Position numbers and translations under genes: made by a program. From a virus, in the IMG/VR virus record IMGVR_UViG_3300048917_000597, positions 1 through 52,977 of that record: a stretch of 52,977 nucleotides of DNA, one strand, 5' to 3'. Under the pieces are notes generated by a model. That model searched no databases and was not told the origin of the DNA. It saw nothing but the letters and a program-made list of their open reading frames with translations. Below, one piece after another: positions 11,531 through 28,833 of this stretch. How positions within the stretch are numbered: position 1 is the stretch's first letter; each line of letters opens with the position of its first letter.

Positions 11531-13537
11531 TCAGGCGCTTGCTGGCAGAACTGTAGGGGCGGCTGCCTCTACAGGTGCAACTGTTGGAGCACTTGTTGGC
11601 GAACCACTATTACTTCCCGGCTCCATCACACCTAGCTTCTGGAGCAACAGGCTCATGTTCTCCGCGAGCTGGGCCTGGCCAGCCTGCAGATGCTGGATCG
11701 CGGCACTGTTCATCTCGAGCTCGAGCTCGTTGCCGGAGGACATTCCCTCGATGCGACCCTCGAGGTCAGCGATGCGCTGGTCACGGGCCGACACCTCCTC
11801 GGTGTCGCCGTTCTTCCAGAGCAGGCCGAGCTCCTTGGCCGAGGCCGAGCCGGACAGCTCGATCTGCTTCTGGACGATGTAGGCCATGGCCCGCACCGCC
11901 TGCTGCATCATCTGCTGGTCACCGCTGTTGGCGATCGCCGGCATGGACTGGCTGAGCGGGATGAACAGCTGGTTCAGGATCCGCAGCTGCTTCTCGTCCT
12001 CGAGCTCGGTCAGGGATCCGGGGACGCAGCGGACGTAGTACTCGGTGGCCATGTCGCTGAAGTCCAGCTTCAGCGTGCCATCGTCGTCGAAGTCCTCCGG
12101 CGCCACTCCGGCCTCGAGCAGCTTCATGCGGGTGTCGCCGCTGGGCTGTACCTTCTGGACGCCCTTGAGCTCCTGGAAGTAGATGGTCAGCGCGTAGGAG
12201 CAGTAGTGGCTGAAGAAGGCTTCGATCGCCTTCTGGTAGTTGTTCGTGGTGATGTCGACCAGGGCGGTCTGAGCGTCCACACCCTGAGGTGTGTTGCTCA
12301 TGCCCTGGGCGTTGCCGGTGCCACCGCCAGCAGCCATCGCCATCTGCGGGTCGGCGCTTCCGACGAGGCCGACCATCGAGCCGAGGTTGTCCCGGCTGAT
12401 CTGGCTGTACTGCATCAGCGTCTGCGTGTTCACCTCGAACGCCTCGACCTTGGCGTTGGGGTTCGAGATCTGCGTGAACTTGCCGGGGCTCAGGTTCGGG
12501 ATCGAGTTGACGGTGCCGTAGCCGATGATGCTCGGGTTGATGTTGCGATACCAGAGCTTCATCGCACCGTTGAGCATCAGGTCCTGGAAGTCCTGGCGGC
12601 CGACGAGCAGCTCGACCTGGGACTTGCCGAGCGGCTGCTGGCTGTCCTTCTCGAGCACGAGGAAGTGGACGGGGTGCTGCTTGAGCGGGTGCTTGTTCTT
12701 CTCGATCCGGAGCAGCACCTTGGTGCTCTCGTGGAAGGTGAGGAACGGCTCGCCGGTGTCGGTGTAGAGGGTGATGATCTCGTAGCCCTCGGGGATCTGG
12801 TGGTGCTTCTTGGTCTGGTGGTCGACCGACTGCTGCTCGCGAGCACGCGGCGGGTTCTTCACCATCAGCCGCAGCGCCGCCGTGTCCCAGCCGGGCGCCT
12901 CGTCACGGATCAGTGCCATCGCCTCACCCTTGGTGAGATAGCGCCGGACGAACACCGAGGTGGCCAGGCGCACGTCCTTGCAGCCGGGCTCGGGGAACAC
13001 GTCGCGGTAGTGGATCGTGTCGTACTTCATGTACCAGGCGCCCTTGGCATCCTCGAGCAGCACCGGCAGCACGCAGTCGAACCCGAGCGTCAGCGCGGTC
13101 TTCGTGCTGGCAAACAGGTTCTGCTGCATGTCGTTGCTGTAGAGGTCGGAGCCGATGACCTTGGTGGTCAGCACGTGCCGGCTGAAGATGCCCTTCAGCG
13201 AGTCGTCGTCGAACTTGGAGACGACCTCGACGTTGGGCGCGTTCTGCACGAGGTTCCGGGCGATGCGCCGCACCAGGCCGGCGGTCTCGCCCGAGCTGAT
13301 GTTGGGCAGGTCCGGCTTCGGGGAGATGACCTCGCCGTCGGCCAGCTTCTCCAACGTCTCGTAGCGGGAGACGCGCATGTCCATCTCGCGCTTGAAGCGG
13401 TTGTACATGTGGTACACGTGGTCAGCGCAGGGCGCCATGGTCCGGAACTCGAGGCTCCCGTCACGCGGGTCGATGGTCCGGGAGTCGTACCACTGATCGA
13501 AGTCAGTGATGGGCTCATGCCCCGTCATTACTGCCAC
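11531..13537 (-). CDS. Portal protein
   Basis: 668 aa. GTG 13537 lies 8 nt after GAGGAAGG (alternative ATG 13528, TAATG junction), overlapping the giant ORF stop. The N-terminal ..NISSGETAGLVRRIARNLVQNAPN.. resembles the recalled T7 gp8-type portal N-terminal segment. The C-terminus is coiled-coil/acidic, and the gene lies directly upstream of the capsid gene. Confidence 0.8.
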   Translation of the reverse strand: MAVMTGHEPITDFDQWYDSRTIDPRDGSLEFRTMAPCADHVYHMYNRFKREMDMRVSRYETLEKLADGEVISPKPDLPNISSGETAGLVRRIARNLVQNAPNVEVVSKFDDDSLKGIFSRHVLTTKVIGSDLYSNDMQQNLFASTKTALTLGFDCVLPVLLEDAKGAWYMKYDTIHYRDVFPEPGCKDVRLATSVFVRRYLTKGEAMALIRDEAPGWDTAALRLMVKNPPRAREQQSVDHQTKKHHQIPEGYEIITLYTDTGEPFLTFHESTKVLLRIEKNKHPLKQHPVHFLVLEKDSQQPLGKSQVELLVGRQDFQDLMLNGAMKLWYRNINPSIIGYGTVNSIPNLSPGKFTQISNPNAKVEAFEVNTQTLMQYSQISRDNLGSMVGLVGSADPQMAMAAGGGTGNAQGMSNTPQGVDAQTALVDITTNNYQKAIEAFFSHYCSYALTIYFQELKGVQKVQPSGDTRMKLLEAGVAPEDFDDDGTLKLDFSDMATEYYVRCVPGSLTELEDEKQLRILNQLFIPLSQSMPAIANSGDQQMMQQAVRAMAYIVQKQIELSGSASAKELGLLWKNGDTEEVSARDQRIADLEGRIEGMSSGNELELEMNSAAIQHLQAGQAQLAENMSLLLQKLGVMEPGSNSGSPTSAPTVAPVEAAAPTVLPASA

Positions 13538-16500
13538 TGCTTCAGCCTTCCTCGCTCAGACCAGACTCTCTCACGCCGGACGTCTGCACGCCGGATGATC
13601 GGGTTCGTCGTGTTGATGAATGGGATGGAGTCGCCGTACGGAGCAATGGCGTGGGGAGGTGCGTACATCTTGTTGTAGTTCGGGTAGCCGCGGCTGGCGT
13701 AGCCACCGCCACCGCCGTAGCTGCGGTGGCCGTAGCCACTGCGGCTGTAACCCGAGGTGCCCTTGTTCTGGTAGGGCGTGTAGGGCGTGTACTGCTGCTT
13801 CGCCGCTTCCTTGATCGCATCCTCGATCGACTTGCCGATCTCGACGTCGGTCGGGGTGTAGCGGCTGTCATCGACGAGCTCGAGAGCTCGCATGCCGGTG
13901 TTGATCCGGTTGATGTAGTCGGTGGTGTTCAGGCGGCTGTCGGTGCCGGTGGAGCCCTTCTGGCCCGGGAAGCCCTGCTCGGAGGTGTAGAGCCGCTTCA
14001 CGGGCTGGATGCCGAGGGCGGTCATCAGGTTGCCGCGGGTGATGCCGGTGGCCCACGGCCGACCGTCAGGGCCCATCACGTAGGTGGTGTTGAGCTGGTT
14101 GTACGTGGCCATCGGCTGGTAGCTGATGTTCTTCGAGAAGAGGATGTCACCGAGGCCCTGGACCGAGGGGTCGGACGTTGGCCCGTACCAGAGCCGCTTC
14201 ATGCGGGCGGTGGCCTTGGTCTGGTCGAGGCCCATGTCGACGCCCTCTTGGATCAGCTCCTTCGTCCACTCCTTCGCGATCTCATCGCGCATGGTCATCG
14301 GGACGTAGATGCCGGCCAGGCTCGGGCTGTCGAGGGTGACGCTGTTCTTCATGATGCCCCAGTACACGGCGCGGGCACCGGCCTTGGTCAGCGCCTCGCG
14401 GCCAGCCTTGTCGATCACCGACAACGGCTCGACCGCGCCCTTCTGCTCCATGTACTTCTCGTGGGCGATCTTGTCGAGGTTGTTGTAGAGGTCCCAGTCC
14501 TTGGTGCGCATGGCCTGGCCCTTGAGGGCGTAGCGAATCTCGTCCTCGGTGATGAGCGGCTGGCCGCCCTGGTCGCCAGAGATCTTGCGGACCAGGCCCT
14601 CGACCTCCTCCTTGGTGGAGGGAGTCTTCGGGACCTCCTGGGTCTTGACCGGCATGTTCTTGCGGTAGTAGTCGTTCTGTCCGCCGGTCAGGCCGGTGAA
14701 CAGCGACATCGCGGTGGCCAGCGTGAAGCGGTTCTCGGTCAGCGCGTGCAACGTGCCGGACGCCGTGGAGCGGCCGAGGTAGCCCATCACGAGCTGGCCG
14801 GTCTCCGGGTCGACGTGCGGGGTCAGCGCAGTGTCCTGGCCGTACGGCTCGCCGACGATGTCCTTCTGGATCGTGCCGTCGCTGTCGGTCTGCGGCAGCT
14901 TGTACGGGTCACGGTCGTAGGCGTCCCAGCTGGTGTAGAGCTGGTTGACGAACGAGTTCTCGAAGAGCATCCGCTCGTACACACCGACGCCGTTGGTCAG
15001 CAGGGCCGCGGCCTTGACCATGTTGTGCGGCCCGCCGAGCGCAGCCTCGTCGTCGGCCATCGAGGCGAACTCGTGGGCGGTCTCGACCGCGTCGGACCAC
15101 ATCATCGTGTTGATCAGCGGGAACGAGCCGACGGCATCCTGGAAGCCCCAGGTGACCTGCTTGAAGTCGCCGGTCTCGTAGAAGCGCTCCATGCCGAGGA
15201 TCGGGCTGACGAACTGCTTGAGCGTCCAGTTCAGCCCGGCCATCGACCGGACGCCACCGGGCGCACTCGGGTCGCCGACCTGGAAGTAGGAGCCGAGACC
15301 GAACGGCAGCGAGTCGAGGAAGATCGAGTCGCTGTTGCGGAAGTCGTTCTCGACGGCGCGCGGGTCGTAGACGAACGGTGCACCCTGCAGCTTCGCCATC
15401 CGCCGGCGCTTCTTGGTCTCGTCGTCCTCACCGGACAGGCCGAGGCCACCGGCCATCATGCCCGCCATGAACAGGCCGGTGTGGGTGAGGCCGCCACGGA
15501 TGAAGGACCGGGACAGGTCGACACCCTCGAGGACGGTCGACATGTCGAAGTTGGCCTCGTCGTCGGGAGTGATCTCCTCGCCGTTGGCCTTGGCCTGCAG
15601 CCGGGACCAGAACGTCACCGGGTGCTTCAGCGCGTTCGTGCGGCCGTGCAGCACGGCGGCGGTGAAGTCGCTCATGCCCTGCATGCCGGTGATGGTGGTC
15701 ATCACGTTGAAGGCGTAGTTGGAGAACAGCAGCGGCATCTTCAGCAGCACGGTGCCGAGGAACGAGGTGGCGCTGTTGGTCGACTCGGACAGCGGCTCGT
15801 AGATCCCGCGCAGCGCCAGTGACAGCGGCGTCGCCTTGAGCGAGCGGAACTGCGCGATCGCGTTGGTGCCGGCCAGGTGGAGCTCGGGCGCGTTCTTCTG
15901 CAGCCACTGAGGATCCATCTGGAGGTTGTCCATCAGTGAGTCGATGGTGAGGTTGTGCTCGCCCGGCGAGAACGCGACCTCGTCCATGACGGCCTCGAAG
16001 TAGCGGCGGGCCAGGGTGTCGGACCGCATGCCCCACGTGGGGTCCTGCATCTTGGCGCCGAACTTGGCGTAGTTCTCGAGCCACTTCTCGACCTTGCCGA
16101 TGCCGTGCATCGACGGGCGCAGGTACATCAGGTCGCGGTAGACCATGGCCTTGAAGTCGTTACGCTGGCCGAGGACGGCGTAGACCTCCTTGGCCCGCTT
16201 GATCTGGTCGGGGCTGTAGCGGGCGGTGATGCCGAACTGCTCGGCGTACTGGCCGAGGCCGGTCTCGCTCAGCTTGGCCTCAGCCATCGCGAGCTTGCCC
16301 TGCGTGCTGTGGCCGACCAGCAGGTTCGCGGCACGGTCGAGGGTGCCGCGAACCCACTGCTCAGGTCCCATGGAGAACCACAGCGCGGGGTTGATCATGG
16401 CGGTGCCGACCCGGAGGTTGATCAGCATCCGCGCCAGGGCGTTGGTGTTCGTCGACATGTCGATGAACTTCTGCCCGTTCTTGCGCAGGTCCTTGACCGT

Positions 16501-19500
16501 GATGTCGAGCGGCATCGGGACGCCGTTCTCCTTGCGCCACTGGCGCATGGCCTCGCGGCGCTTGGCGATCACGGCGGTCGGAGCGTGCTTGGAGGTCTGC
16601 GGACCAGACACCCAGTTCTCGCCGGTGAGGTCGCCCATCGTGGCGCGGGTCGTGTCGAGCACGATCGGGTCACGGGTGAGCCGGTTCATCACATCGGAGA
16701 CCGAGGAGCGCAGCTGGATGTAGTCGTCGTTGGTCTGCGGGTCCAGCAGGAACATGGAGATCCGCGAGTCCATCGAGACCGGCAGGTTCAACAGCGACTC
16801 AGTCGCGGCCTGGTAGGTGTGCATGTGGCCGTCGAGCGCCAGCAGGAAGGCGGAGTCGAAGAGGTTGTCGCTGGTGAGCGCGCCACCGAGCGAGATCTCG
16901 ACGTAGTCGTCCCAGGTCTTGGCGATCTGAGACTTGGCCTCGAGCGAGGTGCGCAGAGCGAACGGCGTCAGCTTGTTCTGGTTCTCGGTGAAGATGATGC
17001 GCAGGTCGTTGACGTGCATCAGCGGGACCATGCCGCTGATCGTCGGCAGGTAGCCGTCCTTGACGTTGGCCAGCATGTCGTCGAGCGCGAGCAGCGCGTT
17101 CTTCTGCGTGATGCCGCGGCTGACCTCTGCGTCGGCGTCCATCGAGCTGGGCTGGCCGAGCAGCTGGCGGACCCAGAAGTCCACCATCGGTGCGTAGGAG
17201 TCGCGCAGGCCGAGCGCATGCACGACCTGGAGCCGCTTCGCCTTGTAGGAGTTGCGGCCGGCCTGGTCCCAGCCGTTGATGTCGTCGACCGGGATCTCCT
17301 GGCGGTACTGCACCATGGCGTCACGACCGTTGTGACGGCGAGCTGCCTCAGCCGGCATGTCGCGGCGCCAGCGGGTGCCGGCGTCGGCGTCGGCCAGGCG
17401 GTTCATCAGCCGCCAGACACCGCCGTCGACGACGTCCTCGTCGAAGCGCTCGAGGCCCTTGCCCTCGGTGAAGACCCTGGTCTTCGCCAGGTCACCGGCG
17501 TACGTGGTCTGAGCGCCGGTGGCGAGGTAGGCGATGGCCGCGCTGTGCGAGCTGACGGCGCCGTCCTGCATCTCGGAGAAGGCCATGCCGTTCTTGACCG
17601 GGTTGTCGCCGGAGGAGTGGACCTCGGCGATCTGCAGCCAGCCGGACAGGTTCTTCGTTGTGTCACCGGTGCCGGGTGTGGACTTGGCCGGCGCCACAGC
17701 GGCAGCGAACGCAGCGCCCTCAGCGGAGAGCACGTCGCTGTGGCGCGGCATCTCATAGCCGCTGTCGGTGGAGAGCGCCTCGGCGTAGCGCATCAGGTCA
17801 CGCGCGATGCCCTGCTTCTTCCACTTGTCGAGGATGTCGACGCTGATGATCTCGCCGTCGTTGGCGTCGTACCAGAAGTGGCCCATCGGCCACCGCTCGC
17901 CTTCCTTGTCGACGCGGAGCTTGACGATGGGGCGCTCGACACCGTCGACCATGTGGGCCTCGGTCGAGACGCCGACGGTCATGCCTCGGTCGGTGAACAG
18001 GCGCTCGGCCTCGTTCAGCGACATGACACCGGACTTGGCCGGCGTGCCCATGCGGATCTCGAGAGTGAAGTCTTCGGCCAGGCTGTAGCCCTCGCCGGGG
18101 TTGAACGGGCTGTTGTTGAACTGCTTGTTGAAGCGGCGGTTCATCTCCTTGCGCAGCTCGGAGCCGTGCGGGGCGAAGTCGAAGACCTGGGTGAACAGCC
18201 GCGGCATGAGGATCGACTGGCTGTCGGGCGTGGCGTTGTTGTCGTTGAAGCCGCCGGACTTCAGCACGTCGTCGACGCGGGCACCGGGCGTCATCAGGTA
18301 GAGCACCAGGGCCCGGGTGATCTGGGCCTCGGGGCTCTGCGGGTCTGCGATCTCGGAGACCCAGTCCTCGGTGGTGAGGTTGGCGCTGGCGTCAGCCACC
18401 GGCTTCAGCATCGCGGAGATCATGGCCGGGAACCGCGAGCTCGTCATCAGCTCGTCAGCGGCCTCGATCGTCAGGCTGTCGCGTCCGGTGGCGATCGCGT
18501 ACAGCAGCGCGCGGGCGTTGGCCGGCGAGGTCTTGAAGACCTTGGCCACGTCGGGCAGGAAGTCAGCACCGAAGATCGCGATGGCGTTGCGGTGGTTGTT
18601 GATGATCCCGTCGAACGCCTCCTTGCTGATCGTGTCGTGCTGGCTGACGATCATGTCGATGCCCCAGCCGGGGAAGAACCCGTGGTCGGGAAGCTTGATG
18701 CGCTCGCCCATCGGCGTGAGCATGTACTTCATCCCGTTCCACTCGACGACCTTCTTGTCGCCGAACTGCTGGAACGGAATGTTCATCTCCATGCTGAGGC
18801 CGTAGCCCGAGCGCGGGTTCACCGAGACGACCGTGCCGGTGTGGACGGTGGCCGCGTCCTCCGGGTCGGTCGGGAAGACCGCGATGTTGTGGGCGTCGGC
18901 CTTGTCCGGCATCGCGATCGACGTGAGCTTCTTGATCACGTCGTCCTTCGGCGCCTTGTAGCCGTGCCGGTACAGCACCACGTTGTGGTGGTTGTCGGTC
19001 AGCGGGATCATGTCGCCGATCTCGAACTGCTCACCCGGTGTCGGCAGCAGCGAGCCGGTGTTGGAGTCGATCCGCGCCATCAGCCGAGTCCAGGCGTGGT
19101 CGAAGTCGTCGTCGGCCTGCTGACGCTGCTTGCCCTTGAGGTGGCCGTTGGCCTGCTCCTTGAGGAGCTTCTGGCCGGCGGCGTCGTCGAGGCCCTTGAG
19201 GTGGGCGGCGACCTTGTCGACCTGGCTGGTGTTGCCGTACGACTCGACCGGCACGTTGAACCGGTAGAGGAAGTTGGACGGGATCAGGTCGACGCTGACA
19301 CCGATGGCGGACAGCCGCTCGTTGTTGGGCCGGACCCAGGCCGAGTTCTCCTCGATGTCCTTGTCGGCCACGTGAAGGATGGCGACCATGCTGCGCTTGG
19401 AGATGCCGCGCATCTCGGTCAGCGTGGAGACTCGGGCCCGCTGGTTCGCGTAGCGGCTGACCGAGGTGTTCGGCTGCATCACGTGGCCGGAGCCGGCCAT

Positions 19501-22500
19501 CCGCGAGTAGCCGAGGCCGTGGCCCTCGAGGTACTGCGAGAGCTCGGCTCGCATGTCACCGGTGCCGTCCGGTGAGGCCAGCACGATGATGGCTCCACGG
19601 TCGGCCAGGTAGTCGAGGCGCTTCTTCGCGGTCTCACGGTTGCCGCTGAAGGAGTCGAGCTCGACGACCACGATGTCGCCTGGGCTGACCCGGAAGCCCT
19701 TGCGGTCGTTGCCGAGGCTGTGCTCGTTGAGCTGGCCCTCGGGCATCTTCGCGTCGGACCAGCCCTCGCGGTAGACCCAGCCGGTACGGAAGCCATCGGC
19801 CTCGAGCATCGCGTCGACGTTCTGGATCATCATGCGACCGAGCATCGTCTCCTGCGGGTCGCGCATCCCGATGAAGGGGATGCCGGCGGCGATCCAGTCG
19901 AAGGCGATGTCCTCGGCGTGCAGGGCGTCCTCGCCCCGGGCGACGGCGGCCTGCAGGTTGCGCGACGGGTCGAAGCCGCCAGTGCCACGCTGCATCATCT
20001 CCGAGCGGTCGAGGTCGGACTGGATCCGTGCCTCGGCGTAGAACTTGATCCGGGCGTCGAACCGGTTGCGCTCGGCCTCCGACATCTGGCCGCGGACGGT
20101 GAGCATCGACTGCCGGGCGCGGTTGGCGATCCGGGTCTCGTCGAGGGTCTTCGTCTCACCGCTGACGCCCTTGATGAACCGGCCCAGCATGTCGGGCGTG
20201 ACGCCCCGGTAGCGCTTGACCTGAGTGATATCGGGCGTCAGCTGGTCGCCGAACAGGCGCTTGACGCCCTGGTCGCCGGTCTCACCGAGCATCGAGCGGA
20301 GCACGTCGTCGGACGGGATCCAGAGTGCGGCGTCGTTGAACGGCAGCGGCGCGCGGTTGCCGTCGGCGTCGGGCGGGTTGTTCCGCTGGAACTCCATGAC
20401 CTGCTCCGCCGACCACAGCACCGGGCTGCCGTTGGCGTCGGTGCCTCGCACGAAGTGCCGGATCTTCAGGCCCTTCAGGTGTGCGTTGTAGTACTCCGGG
20501 TCGAGCGTGCCGAAGCCGAGGTCGGTCTCGGTGAGGATGCGAGCCTTGGCCCGGAGCATGCCGGCGAAGTCGTCGGCCCACGTGCGCTCGATGGACTCGA
20601 CGGTCGCCTTGTCGGGGCCGGTGAAGTTCTGCAGCGCGGGCATGCCCAGCTTGCTGGCGTCCAGCGCCTGAGCCTGCGCGGTGGGGCTGATGCCGCCCGG
20701 CCGGAACCACAGCGTCTCGAGGAGGCCGTTGGCCGAGTCACCCGGCAGCTTGAAGCTGGTGCCCTCGAAGAAGAGGTTGTTCGCGAACTCGCCGTCGCTG
20801 GGCTGCGACTCGGGGTGGAAGAACTCCACCATGACACCGATGGAGTCCGGCTTCACCTTCTTGGCGTCGGCCAGGAACTCGACCGTGCGCTGGATGCGGG
20901 ACAGGTGCACAGCCTGGTAGCCGGTGGTCGACGCCTCCTCGACCGACCAGAACGGCACGCCGAGGTTCTGGTCGTACTTGAACAGGTCCTCCTGCGTCAC
21001 CTCGCCGGTCTCCGGGTCGACGAAGGTGGCGACCACACTGCGGGCGAAGCGGTTGTTCAGCATCGCCCGCGGCGTCGGGTTGTTCGTGCCGTCGGGCATC
21101 GTGACGTCGACCTCGTCGAAGTCGGAGCCGTTGGTCAGGTTGAACCAGGTGAGGCTGGTCTTCGACAGGTACGCCTCACCGGGATCGGTGTAGGACCGGC
21201 GCATCGCTGCAGCGATCGTGGCCTGGAGCTTCGGGCTGACACCGGCCTGGCTGATGGCCGGCTCGGCGGCGGCGGAGTCGAGGCGAGTGTTCGCCTCCAT
21301 CGACGCACGCGCCGTGTCCGGAGTCCAGCTGCCGAGGCTGTGCTCCTTGAACAGCGTCCGCCCCAGCACCTCGACGACCTGCTGGGGCACCTCGGTGTTC
21401 GTGCGCCCGGCACGAGCAGCGATCTCCATGCCTGCCTGGATCAGCGGGGAAGTCTGGTCCAGCAGAGGGTCTGCGATGTAGGAGAACGATGCGTCGAAGT
21501 AGCGCGCGTCGTACACGCCCTGGCTGGTGGAGACGTCGGGGAACGGCGGCGTGCTGATCCCCGGCGCCGTCATCGTGGTCGCGTCGGTGATGTAGACCGC
21601 GATCACCGCGCGACTGAGCTCGGCCCACTCGTCGTCGGACAGGTCCGGCTGGCCGGTGCGGGCCGAGTCGAGGATCTGGTAGGTGTACTTGTCGAGGGTC
21701 TTCTTGGACGCCATCATCGAGTCGACCCAGGCCAGGTGGCTCTGGATGAACGAGTGGATCGCGTCCTTCTTGGCCGCCGACTGGTCGGCCTCGCCCTTCT
21801 TGATGTTGAACATCGAGATCGCCCGGCCAGCCACACCGTCGGACTTGAGCAGGTCGACCCGCTCGACGAACCGGTCGTAGTCGGCCTGGAGTGCAGCGTG
21901 CTCCTTCTGGAGCTGGGCGACGGTGGCCGGGTCGCCAGCCAGCGCCGGGTCGATGCTCTCCGCTGCCTCGCGCTTCGCGTCCTCGAGCTGGATGGCCCGG
22001 GTGTCCAGCAGGTCCTGGATCATCGGGCCGAGCAGCGCCCGGTCCTCGGCCTTGATGCCGAGGTTGTCGGCGACCAGCATGTTGCGCTGCTGCAGTCCGA
22101 CGAGCCGGTGAACCGCGCGGAGCGGGTCGACGCCTGCGGTGGTGGGCGTCATCGCCAGCGAGGAGGCCGACTGCAGCGCGACCGCGAAGTCGTAGTAGGC
22201 GTCGCGGGTGAGCTGCTCGATCTCGTAGTTGGTGAGCTGGTGGTCGGCAGCCGAGGTGCGGGCGATCACCAGGTCGTTGACCGCGCGCTGCACTCCGAAG
22301 TGCGCCAGGTTGCCGCCGAACTTGCTGGCGCTGGACTCGACCAGCATCAGGTAGCGCATGGCCGCGTCGTACGACAGCCGGTCGTTCTTCGGGAACAGCT
22401 CCTTGTGGGAGTTGCCGTTGAGCAGGGACTTCAGGTCCTTGCCGACCAGGAGCTGGTTCGACAGGTAGCCGGCGGCGTTGGCCTCGAGGACCTGCGGGAA

Positions 22501-25500
22501 CAGGATGGCCCGGGCCAGCGGCCGGGTGTCGGCGTTCTTCAGCAGCTTGATCATCTGCTTGGCGTCGGGCTGCGTCCACTCCACGGTGCGACCCTCGTCG
22601 TCCATGGTGCGGACGCCGTCCTTCGCCAGCAGCGCCATGTTGCCCGACACGGCGTCGAGGTTGCTGGACGTCATCATCGCCATCAGCCGCTCGTAGTTCA
22701 CGGTGTAGCCGCGGGCGTCGCGCAGCGCGTCGAACATCCCGTTGAGCCGGACGTTCTCAGCGGTCTTGCCCTTGGTGTGGGACTGGGCGTTGAGCCCGCG
22801 CACCGCACCGATCGTCTGCAGGAGCATCTGCTGGCTGCCGACACCGACGATGTAGTCGTTGCTGTGCTCGATCGCCAGCACGAACTGCCGGTGGAGCTCC
22901 TCGTCACCGGCGTCGACCGCGACACTCGGGTCGTCGAGGTGGGCCAGCCACCGCTCGACCGCGCTGATCACCTGGAAGTCGGAGGCGATCGACGCCTTCT
23001 CGGTCGCCAGGTCGGAGACCAGGTTGTCGGCGGCCACTCGGAGACTGGAGATCGCCTCACGGAGCTCGGCCCCGTCGAGTGCGGTGGTCCAGCCGCCGTG
23101 GGCCTTGTCCTGGTCGAACTCCGCGACGTCGTCGACCCAGGCGGTCAGCGGCGCCTGGTTGCCCCGGACGCCCGGCGTCATGTTGACCCAGCGCATGAAC
23201 TCGCTCAGGTCGGTGGACTTCTCCATCTGCATGATGAACTGCTCGAGCATGAGGCCCTTGTCAGGGCTGGAGGACAGCGCGGAGACGATCCGGTGGATCC
23301 GGCGCGGCAGCCGGATGTTGTTGCGGCTGGCCTCACCCTCGGAGCCTTCGGACTTGCCCTGGTTGATGCCGAGGTAGTTGATCTCCGCACGCAGGATGTT
23401 GCGCCAGTAGTACATCTCCGCGTGCTTGGAGTCGGAGATCGCGAACATGTCGTAGACCCAGTTGGCGATGTGGAGGTTGTTCTCCTCGTCGACCCGGTAG
23501 ACCGAGTTGACCGCGGCGTCCGGGATCAGATCCAGCAGCTTGCGGGCGAAGTCGGGGTTCGCATCGAGCATCCGCTCGACGGTCTCGGCCGCGGTCTCGC
23601 CGTGCTTGCGCGGGGAGATCGCGATGAACTTGTTGAGCGCCGTCACGATCCGCTCGTGCGCGTTCTGGAACGAGTCGGAGATCCGGTCGCTGCGCTCGGC
23701 GAACTCGCCGGTCAGCTTGCCGGCCTTGTCGATCGTGAGCCGGTGGTGGCCGACCGCGAGGATCGAGTCGACCACCGCGCGGTAGGCGGTGATCTCTCCG
23801 GCCCGCATCTCCTCGAGACCGTAGGGGATGTTCTTGCTGCGCTTGCGACCGAGGTACTCGGCCTCACCCCGCAGCTCGGAGTCCATCAGGTAGCGGGTCT
23901 GCTCGGACGCACCGACGTAGGCGCGGGTGAACTGCTCGACGGTGAGCTGGGGGCCGAACACGTTGGCCGCCTCACCGAGCAGCGCGAACATCTGCTGGCT
24001 GCCGACGACCTCGACGAACGCGCGCTCAGCGTTGACCGGGTGGTCGGACCCACCGGGCCGGGTCATCGACTCGAGCGTGGCGTACCGGGCCTGCAGCTCC
24101 GGGCTCACCGCCAGGATGCTGGCCTTCTCGACACGGTCCTCGGCGATCGAGCGCTTCAGCAGCATCTGTGCCAGCGTGATCGTCTTCTTGCCGCCGACGA
24201 TGTTGCCCTTCGAGTCGTAGTCCCAGTCCGTGACGGCGGTGTTCGCCAGCACGGCCAGGGTCTCGGAGGCGTTGACGGTGTAGCCGAGCTTCGCGCTGAT
24301 CTGCTCGGCGCTGGACTCCGACAGCGCCAGGAGCTGGGCGTAGACCCGGGTGGTGATGTCGTCCTTGCCGCGGATGTCGTCGAGCGCGCTACGGGTGAGG
24401 CGCTGGCCCCACTCCTCGTAGATCGCGGCGAGCTCGGACAGCCGCTCCTGCGTGGGAGCCTGGTCGGCGCTGAGCACCGAAGCGAGCTGGCTGGCGTAGT
24501 GGAGCTTCTGGTCCTTGCGGAACATCGTGTCGCCCGCAGTGATCAGCCCGACCTCCTGGCCGATCGTGGCCGACCTGGCAGCGCGGCGCTCGCGCACCTC
24601 GTTGCTCTGCTGGTTCGGTGCCACGACGTCGGAGTTGGGCTGGGGGCTGATCATCGGGCGGTTGGCGGCGTAGTTGCCCTGGAACTCCTGGAAGCTGGTG
24701 CGCACCAGCTGGTCGATCCAGAGCCACTCGTTGCTGAGGTTGCCGTGGGCGAACTCGGTGATCTGTGTGCCGGCCTCGGACGCGAGCCCATCGAGCAGCG
24801 CGCTGCGTGCGCTCTTGACGTTGGACTCGACCGCGTCGTTGAAGTTGCGGAGGATCCGGTCGAGCACGACCTGGTCCACGACGTTGGCGTAGCGCCGGCG
24901 GATGCTCGCACCGATCTGCGTCAGCGTGGCGCTCGCGTACTTCTGGATCGCCTGGTTGCGACCAGTGAGCGCCTCGGACATGTAGTCGGTGATGAACTCC
25001 TCGTACTTGGGAGCGCCGACGTTCACGTGCTCACCGGCGCCGACGAAGTTCTGGCCGCTACGCCCGTTGGCGTACGACGCATCGTCGAGCACGAGCTGGG
25101 CGAGCTGGCGCACCTTGTCGCCGTCGTAGTCGCCACGCAGTGCAGGCAGCAGCGCGTGGGAGATCTGCACCACGTTGTCGCTTGAGTAGAGCGTGAGCTG
25201 CTCGGACGCCTGCGGCACGAGGATGTGGTAGGAGCCCGAGTCGGCGTGCGGGTCGCGGGCGAACACCAGGGACACGGCCTTGGCCAGATCGAGCTTGTCC
25301 TGGTCCGACATCGGCTCGGCCACGCCCTCGATGTCGACGCGGTCGAAGGCGTCCTGCAGGAACTGGTTCATGCTGCGGACCTCGGCGACGATCTCGGCCG
25401 GTGTCACACCGTCGGCGTGGATCCGCTGCAGCCGCTGCTCGATGTCGTCGTTGACGCGCTGGCTCCACACCAGCACGCGCTCGGTGTTGTCGAGCAGCAC

Positions 25501-27846
25501 CTGGGCCCGCGCGCCCTTGTCGATCAGGTCCTGGTTCGTCGGGTCGGTGGCCAGCGCCTTGGTGGCCTCGTCGACCTGGGCCTTGAGGTAGTCGCGCTGG
25601 ATGGCCAGACCGCGACCGTGGTTCAGGAGGTTGATCGCCAGCTGGCGGGCGCTGCTCCCCACGGCATCACCGCGCCAGCTGGCGTCCTCGAGCTGGATCA
25701 TCGCGAACGCACCATCGGTACGGCGGGTTCCGTGCTCGAGGTCTGCGGCCAGCTTGTTCTGGTAGGCGTCGTGCACCTTCTCGATGTGGACGACCGAGCC
25801 GGTCTGCCGCATCGCCATGTCGGAGCTGGCCTGCTTGTAGGCCGCCTTGAGACTCGAGGTCTCGATGGCGGAGAGCGCCGAGAGGGAGCGCTGCTGCACC
25901 TCGGTCATCGCGTTCCACTCGTCACGGCTGAGCTTCGCGCCACCGGTGCGCATCTCGTAGGCCGCGGCAGCCTGGCTGTAGGCCTGGGTCGCCGGGTCGA
26001 CCGCGTGGGCCTGGAACCCCAGCCCCATGCCGGCACCGGCCGCGAACCCGTAGAGCGCGCTGGTCCCGATGTCGGACAGGGAGATCGACTGGTTGTGGCT
26101 CAGGTTGTCGAAGACCGACTGCAGGCCCTCCTCGTAGCCCTCACCCATCGCGTTCACCACGATGGAGGTGAGGCGGCTGTCGCCCTGTGCCATGGACCGG
26201 GCCGCGCGGTAGAAGTCGTCGGCGCTGTAGGCACCGCCACGCTTGGCGGCCATCCGCATCCCGATGATCCGCGCGCTCACGTTGCCGAGCTGCTCGGACG
26301 GCGCCAGCAGCGCGAGGGTGGCCTTCTTGCCGGTGACGTTGCCCGCCTCGTCCAACGTCCACCGGACACCGACGTGCTCGAACTCGCGACCGGCCTCGGC
26401 ACCGGTGGCGTTCGCAGCGCCCTTGCGGAACATGTTCAGCTTGTTGCCGAACCGGCCGACGGCACCAAGGCCACCCTCGTAGACGGTCTGCTCGCCAGCA
26501 GCCCGCAGGCCGGAGTCGACCTTGCCGGCCAGGCCGTGGACCATCCCGAGCTGGACCGCGTCGATGCCGACCTTGCCGATGCCCGCAGCACCGGAGACCA
26601 GGTCGACGTGACCCTTGTCGTCGCGGAAGATGTTGTCGAACCCGCCGCGTGTGTAGTCGAAGGACTTGCCACCGGTGGCCGCGAGCTCGGTGACCTCGCC
26701 ACCGATCGTGCCCGCCATCTGCGTGGTGTAGAGCAGACGACCGACCGGGCTGCCGAACTGCAGCACGGAGTCGGCGACCGTGGCCCCGACGTCGGCCACC
26801 TGGAGCCACTTGCTCACCGTCCGGTCGCCCTTGTCGTCGAGCCGGTAGAACTCGGACTGACCGTCACCGGCATGCCCGAGATCCGCGACGCCCTGCGTCA
26901 CGTTGGAGATCGGGGACAGCAGCCGTCCACCGAAGCCGGACCACTGCTGCACCGCCGTGCCGACACCGGCGAGTGTGGAGTTCTCCTTGAAGCTCATGGA
27001 CGTGATCTCGGCAGCACGCGCGGCCTGCTGGTCGAGGGTGTCGCGGTTCAGCCAGGCACCGACGCCACCGACCGCGGAGCCGCCGAGGAACGCGACGCTG
27101 GTGGGGATCGCGTCCAGCGGCCCGAGCCAGGCGCCACCGACCGCGGTCACACCAGCAGCCAGCGTGCCGCCGGCCAGCGCGCCACCACCGACGATCGCAG
27201 CCTGGGACTTGCCCTCGGCGATCTCACCAGTGCGCCGGTCGACGTTCTCGTTGAACTCCTTGCTGGCCAGCATCTTGGGCACCTCGACGTTGTTCGTCTC
27301 GTGTGCCTGCTGGACCGCCGAGCTCAGAGCGGTGGTGGGATCGGAGTCGGCGTAGATGTGGGCCTTGGTCTTCGCGTCGAAGAGGATGTCGGCCATCATC
27401 AGGTTCGCAGTGGCCGGCTGGTTCTTGAACTCGTGGAAGACGTTGCCGACCTTCTTGCCGTTGTCGTAGATGTCTCCGAAGTGGAAGTCCTGGCCACTGC
27501 CGTCCGTCGCGGTGTGGTCCCAGGTCACGACACCCGTGGCGAACTGCGGCGTCTGGAACTGCTCGTTCAGCTTGCCCGCTTCGCCGGCCGCCTTGTTCGC
27601 CTCCATGGCGCGGGCCCAGAAGTCGGAGTCCCAGCCGTTGTTGGTGCCCTCGCGGTTCTGGCCGGTGTACCAGCTCTTCGCGGTGTAGGTCGTGGGATCG
27701 CCCGGATCGCTGCTCTGTCCGGGCGGCGCGTACGGGTCGTAGAGCCCGGAGTCCTGACGAGCCTTCGCGTCCTGCTGCAGACCGCTGGGGTTGGCGGGGT
27801 TGTTCGCCTGCTGGTTCGCGTACGGATCGTGCAGCTGCTGGGGCAC
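13528..27846 (-). CDS. Giant multidomain virion/ejection protein (4772 aa from GTG 27846; ORF open to 27951) with RNA-polymerase-like double-psi beta-barrel signatures
   Basis: This is a single uninterrupted ORF. GTG 27846 lies 7 nt after GAGGAGG. The N-terminus has Gly-zipper hydrophobic segments. GDYDGDKV is at ORF residues 940-947 (DYDGD = 941-945), preceded by RVDIEG and ARDP. GDKKVVEWNGMKYML starts at residue 3064. A GNAT-like stretch lies near residue 3378. A second hydrophobic Gly-rich segment lies near residue 4160. The C-terminal tail is Gly/Tyr/Ser/Arg-rich. Amino-acid composition is realistic, unlike the antisense shadow ORFs. Confidence 0.9.
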   Translation of the reverse strand: MPQQLHDPYANQQANNPANPSGLQQDAKARQDSGLYDPYAPPGQSSDPGDPTTYTAKSWYTGQNREGTNNGWDSDFWARAMEANKAAGEAGKLNEQFQTPQFATGVVTWDHTATDGSGQDFHFGDIYDNGKKVGNVFHEFKNQPATANLMMADILFDAKTKAHIYADSDPTTALSSAVQQAHETNNVEVPKMLASKEFNENVDRRTGEIAEGKSQAAIVGGGALAGGTLAAGVTAVGGAWLGPLDAIPTSVAFLGGSAVGGVGAWLNRDTLDQQAARAAEITSMSFKENSTLAGVGTAVQQWSGFGGRLLSPISNVTQGVADLGHAGDGQSEFYRLDDKGDRTVSKWLQVADVGATVADSVLQFGSPVGRLLYTTQMAGTIGGEVTELAATGGKSFDYTRGGFDNIFRDDKGHVDLVSGAAGIGKVGIDAVQLGMVHGLAGKVDSGLRAAGEQTVYEGGLGAVGRFGNKLNMFRKGAANATGAEAGREFEHVGVRWTLDEAGNVTGKKATLALLAPSEQLGNVSARIIGMRMAAKRGGAYSADDFYRAARSMAQGDSRLTSIVVNAMGEGYEEGLQSVFDNLSHNQSISLSDIGTSALYGFAAGAGMGLGFQAHAVDPATQAYSQAAAAYEMRTGGAKLSRDEWNAMTEVQQRSLSALSAIETSSLKAAYKQASSDMAMRQTGSVVHIEKVHDAYQNKLAADLEHGTRRTDGAFAMIQLEDASWRGDAVGSSARQLAINLLNHGRGLAIQRDYLKAQVDEATKALATDPTNQDLIDKGARAQVLLDNTERVLVWSQRVNDDIEQRLQRIHADGVTPAEIVAEVRSMNQFLQDAFDRVDIEGVAEPMSDQDKLDLAKAVSLVFARDPHADSGSYHILVPQASEQLTLYSSDNVVQISHALLPALRGDYDGDKVRQLAQLVLDDASYANGRSGQNFVGAGEHVNVGAPKYEEFITDYMSEALTGRNQAIQKYASATLTQIGASIRRRYANVVDQVVLDRILRNFNDAVESNVKSARSALLDGLASEAGTQITEFAHGNLSNEWLWIDQLVRTSFQEFQGNYAANRPMISPQPNSDVVAPNQQSNEVRERRAARSATIGQEVGLITAGDTMFRKDQKLHYASQLASVLSADQAPTQERLSELAAIYEEWGQRLTRSALDDIRGKDDITTRVYAQLLALSESSAEQISAKLGYTVNASETLAVLANTAVTDWDYDSKGNIVGGKKTITLAQMLLKRSIAEDRVEKASILAVSPELQARYATLESMTRPGGSDHPVNAERAFVEVVGSQQMFALLGEAANVFGPQLTVEQFTRAYVGASEQTRYLMDSELRGEAEYLGRKRSKNIPYGLEEMRAGEITAYRAVVDSILAVGHHRLTIDKAGKLTGEFAERSDRISDSFQNAHERIVTALNKFIAISPRKHGETAAETVERMLDANPDFARKLLDLIPDAAVNSVYRVDEENNLHIANWVYDMFAISDSKHAEMYYWRNILRAEINYLGINQGKSEGSEGEASRNNIRLPRRIHRIVSALSSSPDKGLMLEQFIMQMEKSTDLSEFMRWVNMTPGVRGNQAPLTAWVDDVAEFDQDKAHGGWTTALDGAELREAISSLRVAADNLVSDLATEKASIASDFQVISAVERWLAHLDDPSVAVDAGDEELHRQFVLAIEHSNDYIVGVGSQQMLLQTIGAVRGLNAQSHTKGKTAENVRLNGMFDALRDARGYTVNYERLMAMMTSSNLDAVSGNMALLAKDGVRTMDDEGRTVEWTQPDAKQMIKLLKNADTRPLARAILFPQVLEANAAGYLSNQLLVGKDLKSLLNGNSHKELFPKNDRLSYDAAMRYLMLVESSASKFGGNLAHFGVQRAVNDLVIARTSAADHQLTNYEIEQLTRDAYYDFAVALQSASSLAMTPTTAGVDPLRAVHRLVGLQQRNMLVADNLGIKAEDRALLGPMIQDLLDTRAIQLEDAKREAAESIDPALAGDPATVAQLQKEHAALQADYDRFVERVDLLKSDGVAGRAISMFNIKKGEADQSAAKKDAIHSFIQSHLAWVDSMMASKKTLDKYTYQILDSARTGQPDLSDDEWAELSRAVIAVYITDATTMTAPGISTPPFPDVSTSQGVYDARYFDASFSYIADPLLDQTSPLIQAGMEIAARAGRTNTEVPQQVVEVLGRTLFKEHSLGSWTPDTARASMEANTRLDSAAAEPAISQAGVSPKLQATIAAAMRRSYTDPGEAYLSKTSLTWFNLTNGSDFDEVDVTMPDGTNNPTPRAMLNNRFARSVVATFVDPETGEVTQEDLFKYDQNLGVPFWSVEEASTTGYQAVHLSRIQRTVEFLADAKKVKPDSIGVMVEFFHPESQPSDGEFANNLFFEGTSFKLPGDSANGLLETLWFRPGGISPTAQAQALDASKLGMPALQNFTGPDKATVESIERTWADDFAGMLRAKARILTETDLGFGTLDPEYYNAHLKGLKIRHFVRGTDANGSPVLWSAEQVMEFQRNNPPDADGNRAPLPFNDAALWIPSDDVLRSMLGETGDQGVKRLFGDQLTPDITQVKRYRGVTPDMLGRFIKGVSGETKTLDETRIANRARQSMLTVRGQMSEAERNRFDARIKFYAEARIQSDLDRSEMMQRGTGGFDPSRNLQAAVARGEDALHAEDIAFDWIAAGIPFIGMRDPQETMLGRMMIQNVDAMLEADGFRTGWVYREGWSDAKMPEGQLNEHSLGNDRKGFRVSPGDIVVVELDSFSGNRETAKKRLDYLADRGAIIVLASPDGTGDMRAELSQYLEGHGLGYSRMAGSGHVMQPNTSVSRYANQRARVSTLTEMRGISKRSMVAILHVADKDIEENSAWVRPNNERLSAIGVSVDLIPSNFLYRFNVPVESYGNTSQVDKVAAHLKGLDDAAGQKLLKEQANGHLKGKQRQQADDDFDHAWTRLMARIDSNTGSLLPTPGEQFEIGDMIPLTDNHHNVVLYRHGYKAPKDDVIKKLTSIAMPDKADAHNIAVFPTDPEDAATVHTGTVVSVNPRSGYGLSMEMNIPFQQFGDKKVVEWNGMKYMLTPMGERIKLPDHGFFPGWGIDMIVSQHDTISKEAFDGIINNHRNAIAIFGADFLPDVAKVFKTSPANARALLYAIATGRDSLTIEAADELMTSSRFPAMISAMLKPVADASANLTTEDWVSEIADPQSPEAQITRALVLYLMTPGARVDDVLKSGGFNDNNATPDSQSILMPRLFTQVFDFAPHGSELRKEMNRRFNKQFNNSPFNPGEGYSLAEDFTLEIRMGTPAKSGVMSLNEAERLFTDRGMTVGVSTEAHMVDGVERPIVKLRVDKEGERWPMGHFWYDANDGEIISVDILDKWKKQGIARDLMRYAEALSTDSGYEMPRHSDVLSAEGAAFAAAVAPAKSTPGTGDTTKNLSGWLQIAEVHSSGDNPVKNGMAFSEMQDGAVSSHSAAIAYLATGAQTTYAGDLAKTRVFTEGKGLERFDEDVVDGGVWRLMNRLADADAGTRWRRDMPAEAARRHNGRDAMVQYRQEIPVDDINGWDQAGRNSYKAKRLQVVHALGLRDSYAPMVDFWVRQLLGQPSSMDADAEVSRGITQKNALLALDDMLANVKDGYLPTISGMVPLMHVNDLRIIFTENQNKLTPFALRTSLEAKSQIAKTWDDYVEISLGGALTSDNLFDSAFLLALDGHMHTYQAATESLLNLPVSMDSRISMFLLDPQTNDDYIQLRSSVSDVMNRLTRDPIVLDTTRATMGDLTGENWVSGPQTSKHAPTAVIAKRREAMRQWRKENGVPMPLDITVKDLRKNGQKFIDMSTNTNALARMLINLRVGTAMINPALWFSMGPEQWVRGTLDRAANLLVGHSTQGKLAMAEAKLSETGLGQYAEQFGITARYSPDQIKRAKEVYAVLGQRNDFKAMVYRDLMYLRPSMHGIGKVEKWLENYAKFGAKMQDPTWGMRSDTLARRYFEAVMDEVAFSPGEHNLTIDSLMDNLQMDPQWLQKNAPELHLAGTNAIAQFRSLKATPLSLALRGIYEPLSESTNSATSFLGTVLLKMPLLFSNYAFNVMTTITGMQGMSDFTAAVLHGRTNALKHPVTFWSRLQAKANGEEITPDDEANFDMSTVLEGVDLSRSFIRGGLTHTGLFMAGMMAGGLGLSGEDDETKKRRRMAKLQGAPFVYDPRAVENDFRNSDSIFLDSLPFGLGSYFQVGDPSAPGGVRSMAGLNWTLKQFVSPILGMERFYETGDFKQVTWGFQDAVGSFPLINTMMWSDAVETAHEFASMADDEAALGGPHNMVKAAALLTNGVGVYERMLFENSFVNQLYTSWDAYDRDPYKLPQTDSDGTIQKDIVGEPYGQDTALTPHVDPETGQLVMGYLGRSTASGTLHALTENRFTLATAMSLFTGLTGGQNDYYRKNMPVKTQEVPKTPSTKEEVEGLVRKISGDQGGQPLITEDEIRYALKGQAMRTKDWDLYNNLDKIAHEKYMEQKGAVEPLSVIDKAGREALTKAGARAVYWGIMKNSVTLDSPSLAGIYVPMTMRDEIAKEWTKELIQEGVDMGLDQTKATARMKRLWYGPTSDPSVQGLGDILFSKNISYQPMATYNQLNTTYVMGPDGRPWATGITRGNLMTALGIQPVKRLYTSEQGFPGQKGSTGTDSRLNTTDYINRINTGMRALELVDDSRYTPTDVEIGKSIEDAIKEAAKQQYTPYTPYQNKGTSGYSRSGYGHRSYGGGGGYASRGYPNYNKMYAPPHAIAPYGDSIPFINTTNPIIRRADVRRERVWSERGRLKQWQ

Positions 27847-28089
27847 CGCTCTACCTCCTCGACCGGAGCAGTGGCGGCTCCTGAGGCGTGAGCGTACACA
27901 CACTTCGCGCCAACCGGTGCCACGACCCGGCGGGTCGTCACGTCCTTCCACCTAGCTTCTGGTGGCGCTTCTCGAAGCGTCAGCCAAACGGGGGTGCCCG
28001 ATTGGCGCTTTCCCCTCGGTCGGCATCGTCTGGAAGACCGAACCGAGTGCTTCAGACCAATCGAGTGCTTCGTTTGGCACGGATGTTGG

Positions 28090-28260
28090 GATAAGCAAAA
28101 AAGTTTCCGTCCAGTACGAATATATACATATAAAACAAACAACACATACTATACCCCCTATACATATATATGTATGGTATATAGGATCCATATTCGATAT
28201 GTAATAGGGATAACGTTGTGGAGTTTGTGTCAATCTGATTTTTGGATTGGTATGTGGATA
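28090..28260. promoter_or_regulatory. AT-rich island (candidate origin/DNA-unwinding element, early promoter cluster or genome-end region)
   Basis: There is an abrupt local drop in GC in an otherwise GC-rich genome (..gcaaaaaagtttccgtccagtacgaatatatacatataaaacaaacaacacatactata..). It contains the perfect palindrome ATACATATATATGTAT at 28160-28175 and lies between the divergent giant gene and the first plus-strand gene. Confidence 0.6.
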
Positions 28261-28304
28261 TCGGTCTAGCCGTAGCAGGCTTAGGACGTAAGGAGATGGT
28301 GGCC

Positions 28305-28547: not shown

Positions 28548-28553
28548 TTGCGG

Positions 28554-28830: not shown

Positions 28831-28833
28831 ATT

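Follow-up and report, generated by a model that had tools for sequence, protein, structure and literature searches.

RNA polymerases (RNAPs) embedded in giant virion proteins have been described in phage phi14:2, as gp66 (10.1101/2020.03.07.982082), and in phage P23-45, as gp96 (PMC10770324). The gp66 protein was suspected of being an RNAP from its conserved DxDxD motif, and it is packaged in the virion and injected for the transcription of early genes (10.1101/2020.03.07.982082). The gp96 protein is a late product that enters the virion and serves in pre-early transcription from an A+T-rich promoter, its polymerase being fused to a giant tail tape measure protein (PMC10770324). In both phages, the presence of a virion two-barrel RNAP within a giant protein was shown experimentally (10.1101/2020.03.07.982082, PMC10770324), and these findings altered views of RNAP evolution and of the start of phage infection. 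We investigated the giant gene of another virus, contained in a stretch of 52,977 nt with 66% G+C (positions 1 to 52,977 of IMG/VR record IMGVR_UViG_3300048917_000597; this whole stretch is called the window). A sequence-only reading of the window had pointed to a metal-binding motif, DYDGD, in its largest open reading frame (ORF) and had proposed a candidate virion RNAP.

By analogy, the virion two-barrel RNAPs of P23-45 and of the crAss-like phages would be the closest functional systems. Our best explanation is that the giant gene encodes a polyvalent virion protein of the ejection type, carrying the catalytic core of a multisubunit-type two-barrel RNAP. We put the probability that it is a virion-delivered enzyme of early transcription at about 0.7.

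The two candidate barrels

The giant ORF and the elements of its first module are the following, residue numbers being counted throughout from the GTG at 27951:

13528..27951, minus strand: giant ORF, 4,807 codons counted from GTG 27951
23902..26544, minus strand: beta-prime-like module as modelled, amino acids (aa) 470-1350, with a confident core at aa ~750-1100 (window ~24650-25700)
25249..25257, minus strand: R899-D-P901, counterpart of the beta-prime N-R-A-P (Rpb1 R446/P448)
25117..25131, minus strand: D941-Y-D943-G-D945, predicted Mg-binding Asp triad

The peptide on which the sequence-only reading was built is present exactly in the minus-strand translation of 13528-27951, with FDRVDIEG at aa 869 (window 25347-25324) and ARDPHAD at aa 898. 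The plus-strand translation of 25110-25345 is meaningless, so that the feature lies on the minus strand. Given the length and composition of the protein, 0.16 occurrences of D.DGD are expected by chance; a lone occurrence is thus not significant by itself, and the weight is carried by conservation. When 1.84 billion cluster representatives were searched exhaustively with HMMER, with residues 500-1700 as the query, a family of 186 cluster representatives was returned; about 120 of them are full length (4,300-4,900 aa) and share ~20-48% identity with the query across the 1,200 residues compared. A word-indexed homologue search found 2 fragments only, even when an alignment served as the query. 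Every full-length representative returned had D-x-D-G-D at the homologous site, the second position being variable (DFDGD 63, DYDGD 35, DHDGD 30, plus N, W and others), and in the homologue contexts printed R-x-P stood ~42 residues before it. Four sequences that seemed to deviate carry DGDxDGD, which the pattern matching had misread. In an alignment of 43 sequences, the only invariant columns of an 881-residue fragment were P551, E604, E607, E608, Q611, G635, G639 and G641 as well as R899, P901, D941, D943, G944 and D945; the last six were also at least 90% conserved in an alignment of 122 sequences.

The Asp triad and R-x-P are thus kept across a large and very divergent family, and two of the three beta-prime landmarks named by the sequence-only reading, namely, R-x-P and DYDGD, stood up to this comparison. 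The same holds for the spacing from R-x-P to the first Asp, which is 42 residues here and 35 in Escherichia coli beta-prime, as had been claimed (the R899-to-D941 distance compares with 45 in Qde1). The third landmark, in which RVDIEG was equated with KRVDYSGRSV, had to be given up, as this stretch is variable, gappy and unalignable among the homologues. From the model described below, we tentatively read the first half of the beta-prime barrel as the strands at aa ~747-766, which precede a long helical insertion.

Conservation as strict as that of the catalytic triad was also seen at two further sites, which lie in a helical region ~300-390 residues upstream of DYDGD. In GEGYEEGLQ (aa 602-611; 26119-26148, minus strand), the invariant residues are E604, E607, E608 and Q611, and in APSE (aa 550-553; 26293-26304, minus strand), P551 is invariant and S552 and E553 are at least 90% conserved. 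These sites might form a second acidic site or an interface.

The structure of aa 470-1350 was modelled with AlphaFold2 from a family alignment of 29 rows. The mean predicted local distance difference test (pLDDT) score was 76, and residues ~750-1100 scored 85-97. In the model, the strands LVFARD, HILVPQA and VVQIS correspond to VLLNRAP, IQAFEPV and AIQLH of beta-prime, the short helix HALLPAL corresponds to PLVCAAY, and DYDGD is followed by a strand, KVRQ, that corresponds to QMAVH; the helical insertion after the strands at aa 747-766 measures ~125 residues. A Foldseek search of the PDB placed RNAP beta-prime or largest subunits in all of the top 50 positions (best E value, 1e-4; probability, 1.0), with alignments of ~600 columns or more. 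These matches were bacterial beta-prime chains of Thermus, E. coli, Mycobacterium, Streptomyces and Bacillus, plus the poxvirus Rpo147. Among the predicted viral structures of BFVD, the search returned first the uncharacterised homologues of phages Burro, Truong and TinyTimothy and then RNAP subunits of nucleocytoplasmic large DNA viruses (giant viruses). The prediction that the region around the motif would resemble the beta-prime catalytic barrel was thus borne out. Of the comparison systems that had been named with it, the beta-prime chains were matched, and QDE-1 and gp66 were absent from the 50 Foldseek rows, an absence that could reflect redundancy of the PDB.

Profile comparisons pointed to the same site. 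With hhalign, the family placed R.P...DxDGD on NRAPTLH...NADFDGD of E. coli beta-prime (pairwise E value, 4.5e-4) and on the same motif of a proteobacterial beta-prime profile (E value, 1.3e-3), and the one meaningful match of the full-length family profile in the PDB, itself weak, was the phiKZ RNAP subunit gp55, again at this motif (E value, 0.2). A Pfam scan of the whole ORF gave two irrelevant sub-threshold matches at E values of up to 1 and no RNA_pol_Rpb1 or RNA_pol_Rpb2 domain, and scans of the whole ORF with PHROGs and NCBIfam gave no matches. Searches of the PDB with phmmer and hmmsearch found nothing significant, only a coiled-coil artefact and the sub-threshold phiKZ gp55. Since the fold matches and the independent profile evidence agree, we consider it very likely that the giant protein contains a beta-prime-type catalytic barrel, as modelled here. 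In such a barrel (aa ~745-1100), R899 and P901 would position the nucleoside triphosphate, and D941, D943 and D945 would hold the catalytic Mg-A.

In two-barrel RNAPs, barrel B contributes an invariant Asp and two basic residues (Rpb2 D837, K979 and K987), and eight residues are said to define all of these enzymes (PMC2919709). Five of the eight were found outright in the giant family, and there are candidates for the remaining three. In the model, the segment in front of barrel A, aa 470-745, is mostly helix and has a single small sheet of three strands. A candidate beta-like module, absent from the sequence-only reading, lies ~2,100 residues downstream of barrel A:

17992..21354, minus strand: beta/Rpb2-like module as modelled, aa 2200-3320, with a beta-strand-rich core at aa ~2975-3135 (window 18547-19029)
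18727..18756, minus strand: K3066-KVVEWNG-M-K3075, candidate "basic loop," equivalent of beta K1065/K1073 (Rpb2 K979/K987)
19348..19350, minus strand: E2868, candidate barrel-B acidic ligand, in E-N-S-A-W-V (compare beta E-D-S-I-L-V)
19675-19677, minus strand: D2759, alternative candidate for the barrel-B acid

The AlphaFold2 model of aa 2200-3320 had a pLDDT score of 77. Its Foldseek matches in the PDB were weak (E values, 0.011-0.7; probability, at most 0.93; root-mean-square deviation, 9-16 Å), and 48 of the top 50 were second-largest RNAP subunits, including bacterial beta, Pol II Rpb2 and the subunits of African swine fever virus and vaccinia virus. As all beta chains are related, these 48 count as one match to a fold family. 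Within the segment FGDKKVVEWNGMKYMLTP....LP, residues K3066, G3073, K3075 and K3110 are near-invariant: K3066 is Lys in 119 of 122 sequences and Arg in 3, K3075 is Lys in 121 and Arg in 1, and G3073 is Gly in 111. Compared by eye, GDK...G.K...P parallels the E. coli beta segment ending in ...MP, with a Gly at position -2 of the lysine in both, and the two lysines are 9 residues apart here versus 8 in beta, i.e., with one extra residue. By this motif comparison, K3066 and K3075 may correspond to the basic-loop lysines of beta. The acid may be either E2868 (Glu in 116 of 122 sequences) or D2759 (Asp in 117 and Glu in 5). A third candidate, the KDD after the LYRHG hairpin, was rejected, as no conserved acid occurs there.

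Because the conserved beta-prime half of an active site must have a partner, we regard the assignment of aa ~2750-3130 as the modelled beta-like partner module as quite likely. K3066, K3075 and one of the two acids would then supply the second half of the active site, and the two halves would meet in the uncut chain or, alternatively, once proteolysis has divided it into separate chains.

Next to this module, a ~100-residue insertion at aa 3317-3416 (17704-18003, minus strand) has no counterpart in seven isolate homologues. Its residues 3348-3399 gave sub-threshold Pfam matches to a GNAT acetyltransferase (E value, 0.13) and to DUF6930 (E value, 0.05).

Genome context and probable virion association

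The window holds two divergent gene blocks, with plus-strand genes between ~28,000 and ~46,000 and minus-strand genes outside those bounds. The giant gene opens the structural operon and lies directly upstream of the portal gene, an adjacency that ties it to the virion module. The GTG at 27951 lacks a ribosome-binding site, and the probable start is the GTG at 27846 (aa 36), because a GGAGG Shine-Dalgarno sequence precedes it and the homologues begin there; the product would then have 4,772 aa. Two features are of interest here:

11531..13537, minus strand: portal gene, immediately downstream of the giant gene, with 55% identity to the Burro portal protein gp28
27139..27201, minus strand: Gly/Ala-rich transmembrane-like segment, aa 251-271, the only strongly hydrophobic segment in a Kyte-Doolittle scan

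DNA and protein searches of a phage collection matched actinobacterial podophages only, namely, the Microbacterium phages Burro, Araxxi, Arete and DoTi (Burrovirus), the cluster EK phages Akoni, Mazun, Fede and others (Eekayvirinae) and the Arthrobacter phage MissAmericana. The giant ORF is collinear with Burro gp27, Araxxi gp27, Akoni gp31 and MissAmericana gp30, and its protein is ~31% identical to that of Burro over the 800 residues compared. The relatives share a layout in which a gene of ~13.4 kb opens a rightward operon, is followed by portal and capsid genes and diverges from a replication block with PolA, a nuclease and an AAA ATPase. Ten structural-module proteins of the window (10096-13537, 1057-8992 and 46230-50244, minus strand) had no Pfam match at an E value of 0.01 or below, apart from one at chance level. 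They include the presumed capsid and portal proteins, the latter recognisable only through its Burro homologue, and no exact-sequence match to the capsid protein is on record. The virion module is thus very divergent in sequence.

The giant gene of the Burro and EK phages was described by Jacobs-Sera et al. in 2020 as exceeding 13 kbp and 4,400 residues, occupying ~25% of the genome and having an unclear role; its proteins had no similarity to the N4 virion RNAP, and two N-terminal transmembrane domains were reported for Burro gp27 (PMC7302621). In CsCl-purified Burro virions, a protein of ~250 kDa, larger than any other gene product, was attributed to gp27 (PMC7302621), indicating that the Burro protein is virion associated and probably processed. 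If our assignment of the two modules is right, their order and their separation by ~2,100 residues suggest long-range folding or cleavage into subunits, and cleavage would be consistent with the ~250-kDa species. A metagenomic relative bears on the same question: in ENA ERZ25039534 contig_63338 (6910-12004), the giant gene was called in consecutive pieces (1,151 aa, 551 aa and more). Frameshifts in the assembly are a likelier explanation than a gene that is really divided, but a natural division would be informative on the matter of subunits.

The giant protein is most conserved in its C-terminal 650 residues (aa 4160-4807; window 13531-15474, minus strand). This block opens with a hydrophobic stretch followed by EDDETKKRRR and ends with a stretch rich in Gly and Tyr and a basic tail that is near-invariant, ...RRADVRRERVWSERGRLKQWQ (pattern RRERxxSERGRLKQWQ). 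It might serve as a packaging signal, as a portal-docking signal or in nucleic-acid binding.

The late-operon position, the hydrophobic segment and the Burro virion data fit an RNAP-bearing protein of the ejection or internal-core type. For the present phage, virion packaging and injection are suggested by the Burro homologue (PMC7302621) and by analogy. Two-barrel RNAPs that are not virion proteins do exist, YonO and the P23-45 gp64 being examples (PMC5467207, PMC10770324), and the giant protein could likewise be made in the cell for middle or late transcription. We consider this very improbable, given a gene at the head of a portal/capsid operon, a homologue in CsCl-purified virions (PMC7302621), and the membrane-type and very long non-enzymatic regions that are typical of ejection proteins.

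In database records, the giant gene carries two labels. GenBank records list a hypothetical protein, and the name tape measure protein appears in RefSeq for Araxxi (NC_048801) and Arete (NC_048860) and in GenBank for MissAmericana; phage records dated up to 2025 still use one or the other. We rejected identity as a tape measure protein. The relatives are podoviruses by electron microscopy and lack a tape measure (PMC7302621), no tape measure domain was found with Pfam, and the gene lies upstream of the portal and capsid genes and not among tail genes. Given the podovirus morphology and the gene position, the label is probably a misannotation. In the library searched, we found no paper assigning an RNAP to the EK/Burro giant gene; the supplements of Chaban et al. 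have no Microbacterium or Arthrobacter entry, and a 2026 genome announcement of EK2 phages does not mention such an assignment.

The tape measure label also enters into a reading in which a purely structural ejection or internal-core protein contains the beta-prime-like barrel as a relic, exapted or inactive. The metal bound by the DxDGD loop would then serve folding or virion stability, the resemblance to beta would be spurious, and the host RNAP would do all of the transcription. DxDGD-like loops do occur in calcium-binding proteins too, no enzymatic domain is recognisable over most of the 4,800 residues, the statistics of the beta-like match are weak, and the Araxxi, Arete and MissAmericana records name a tape measure. 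A relic would nevertheless not keep Arg, Pro and three Asp residues fixed across ~120 full-length representatives that are only ~20-48% identical, nor the distant near-invariant K-x8-K pair. The podovirus relatives, again, have no tape measure (PMC7302621). Moreover, a scan of the divergent control region (27900-30300), not tuned to actinobacteria, gave no consensus promoter of the sigma-70 type. We thus hold the relic reading to be improbable.

Our preferred reading, in which the giant protein is an injected RNAP, would run as follows. The protein would be expressed late, from the gene that heads the portal/capsid operon, and stored in the capsid. Its ejection would accompany that of the DNA, perhaps with the N-terminal membrane segment as an anchor, and the injected enzyme would then carry out transcription of the first phage genes independently of the host RNAP.

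Divergent control region and early transcription

No RNAP gene was found in the plus-strand (early) block, whose proteins include an AAA ATPase, an Enc34-type single-stranded DNA-binding protein, a PD-(D/E)XK nuclease, PolA, a helicase, a DUF5906 primase-helicase and a Prim-Pol. The sequence-only reading had stated that the genome carries no other RNAP, and we came to the same result. The only coding-strand ORFs of at least 700 aa besides the giant ORF are those of PolA and of a 1,156-aa structural-module protein, the latter being the one other ORF that is both unassigned and of a size sufficient for a T7-type RNAP; there is thus no evident room for a T7- or N4-type RNAP gene. With no RNAP gene evident in the genome besides the giant ORF, the simplest role for an injected RNAP would be to provide early transcription.

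The region from the giant gene to the end of the first plus-strand transcription unit holds the following features:

28106..28190, plus strand: A+T-rich non-coding element of ~85 nt with a ATACCCCC core, single copy, pointing to the first early ORF
28305-28547, plus strand: first early ORF, 80 aa, with a good Shine-Dalgarno sequence, in the position of Burro gene 26
28554-28597, plus strand: strong terminator-like hairpin with a 15-bp stem and a T-run, directly after the 80-aa ORF

The only stretch of the window of at least 40 nt with at least 70% A+T is 28091-28217. The core of the element reads ...GAATATATACATATAAAACAAACAACACATACT-ATACCCCC-TATACATATATATGTATGGTATATAGG, and the element recurs in Burro, Araxxi, MissAmericana, Akoni, Mazun, Atraxi and Fede with its sequence, orientation and position kept; in all, this conservation extends to seven isolate phages and six metagenomic relatives. 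When IMG/VR was scanned for the pattern of the element, 37 matches were obtained. Ten of these lie from a few hundred to ~900 bases upstream of a giant-gene homologue and point away from it, five in isolates or near-isolates and five in metagenomic relatives; the other 27 have no giant-gene neighbour, about the number expected by chance. The giant proteins of the five metagenomic relatives are 36-59% identical to known family members (one is nearly identical), and those nearest family members are only ~25-30% identical to the giant protein of the window. The element could act as a promoter read by the phage RNAP, or it could be where a replication origin unwinds.

The ORF at 28305-28547 showed no BLASTP similarity to Burro gp26. 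Together with its hairpin, it forms a short self-contained transcription unit (28305-28597). Two paralogous arrays of ~250 bp each, 77% identical to one another, lie at 28880-29180 and 51680-51940, one in the divergent control region and one in a second intergenic gap ~23 kb away. Both contain GTGTAGACAC / GGGTGTCTACA palindromes and GGGTGACTAC repeats, and GTCTACA occurs in 22 copies versus 2.8 expected. As Burro has GGTAACG/CGTTACC arrays at the equivalent place, the arrays look like iterons, i.e., sites for a phage-specific DNA-binding protein acting in origin function, partition or regulation.

This arrangement is relevant to a different possibility, namely, that the giant protein is an active two-barrel nucleotide polymerase that does not serve general early transcription. 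It might act as a genome-pulling motor, make a short pre-early transcript or primer RNA at the A+T-rich, iteron-flanked region, or be an RNA-dependent (QDE-1-like) or DNA-synthesising (PolD-like) enzyme. The single copy of the element, followed by one small ORF and a strong terminator, would suit such roles, as would the adjacent iteron-like arrays, which resemble a replication origin, and a genome that is probably circularly permuted (PMC7302621). QDE-1, moreover, is described as both DNA and RNA dependent (PMC9508822), and PolD shares the two barrels (PMC10770324). Conversely, the top 50 structural matches were subunits of DNA-dependent multisubunit RNAPs, with neither PolD nor QDE-1 among them, and replication enzymes (PolA, primase-helicase and Prim-Pol) are already encoded. 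We consider a role outside general early transcription unlikely, although less so than the relic reading.

Several points weigh against an injected RNAP of early transcription. The support for this phage is computational, drawn from folds, motif conservation, gene context and family size, and the models cover aa 470-1350 and 2200-3320, with ~3,000 residues outside. The beta-like assignment is a weak one by its Foldseek scores (best E value, 0.011), and hhalign found nothing when the downstream module was compared with E. coli beta and with a beta profile of 30 sequences, all from Proteobacteria and of low diversity. The equivalences of the two lysines and the acid come from motif comparison and not from superposition, and the candidate acid is mostly Glu or ambiguous, whereas an Asp is reported to be invariant elsewhere. 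A beta-prime-then-beta order with a gap of ~2,100 residues is unlike that of QDE-1, gp66 or gp96, so that the pairing of the modelled barrels is presumptive. A single copy of the promoter element with a strong terminator after the first ORF fits poorly with transcription of the whole early region and argues against the element driving that region alone. Finally, the genomes of the group were reported to be circularly permuted (PMC7302621), which implies that no fixed "early end" enters first as in N4 or the crAss-like phages.

On balance, we consider an active RNAP likely, with a probability slightly above that of the full explanation. A more far-reaching version remains tentative and, in our view, is rather to be doubted than believed. 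In this version, the gene would encode a complete multisubunit-type RNAP core as one polyprotein of 4,800 residues in the order beta-prime then beta, which would be cleaved or folded in the capsid into a two-barrel enzyme, be ejected via its own membrane-inserting segments and start infection from a single A+T-rich promoter of ~85 nt (28106-28190), conserved throughout the family. It would represent a third independent lineage of virion two-barrel RNAPs, nearer to cellular RNAPs than gp66 or gp96 and common in soil actinophages of which teaching-lab collections already have isolates.

Comparison with known systems

If our preferred reading is true, it assigns a role to a viral gene that ranks among the largest known and to at least 186 protein clusters, and it offers a candidate cognate promoter. 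It would also add a lineage with widely separated barrels in the order beta-prime then beta, which bears on the fusion and splitting of barrels in RNAP evolution. The proposal is testable, since the isolates Burro, Akoni, ArMaWen and MissAmericana and their hosts are available.

Among giant injected polymerases, the N4 gp50 is a podovirus RNAP of 3,500 aa that is encoded late, packaged in the virion and used for early transcription. It is a T7-like single-subunit (right-hand) polymerase, with a fold unrelated to that of the giant protein. An N4/T7-type identity was rejected here: no Pfam or PHROG match was found, the structural matches are to the other fold, and no similarity to N4 was reported for the relatives (PMC7302621).

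The compact two-barrel enzymes YonO and QDE-1 share only minimal homology with multisubunit RNAPs, confined to the barrels and the eight catalytic residues (PMC5467207, PMC2919709). The QDE-1 motif, DYDGD, is identical to that of the giant protein of the window. Unlike the giant protein, YonO and QDE-1 are compact (~100-150 kDa) and are not virion proteins, and the barrel-B residues of QDE-1 (D709, R738 and K743) precede its barrel A (R962, P964 and D1007-1011), the opposite of the order proposed here. We did not find the compact unit of barrel B, connector and barrel A within ~800 residues that marks the QDE-1/gp66/gp96 clade; this mismatch counts against clade membership and not against a similar mode of action.

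Jumbo phages such as phiKZ and AR9 package a multisubunit-type RNAP. The best structural matches of both modules are to multisubunit beta-prime and beta, and the register of RxP...DxDGD is that of beta-prime and of phiKZ gp55. In contrast to multisubunit RNAPs, both modules of the giant protein lie in one ORF, beta-prime-like before beta-like, with ~3,000 further residues, and the genome measures 53 kb, as against above 200 kb.

The phi14:2 gp66 (PDB 6VR4) is likewise a large podophage protein, most of whose chain has no recognisable homologues. It has 2,180 aa, a DFDID motif and barrels joined by a connector of ~140 residues, with QDE-1 as its closest structure, whereas the giant protein has a canonical DxDGD and, as modelled, the reversed order of barrels. 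The P23-45 gp96 offers a close parallel, as its DxDGD motif (DFDGD) lies within a virion protein of ~5,000 residues with membrane segments (PMC10770324), and, as in the giant protein, there is almost no similarity to known RNAPs outside the DxDGD region. The two differ in that the gp96 polymerase is compact (aa 327-1124), has its barrel B before its barrel A and belongs to the QDE-1/phage single-subunit clade, whereas in the giant protein a beta-prime-like module would come first and a beta-like module ~2,100 residues later. Unlike P23-45, the phage studied here is a 53-kb podovirus with no tape measure and no second, non-virion RNAP gene.

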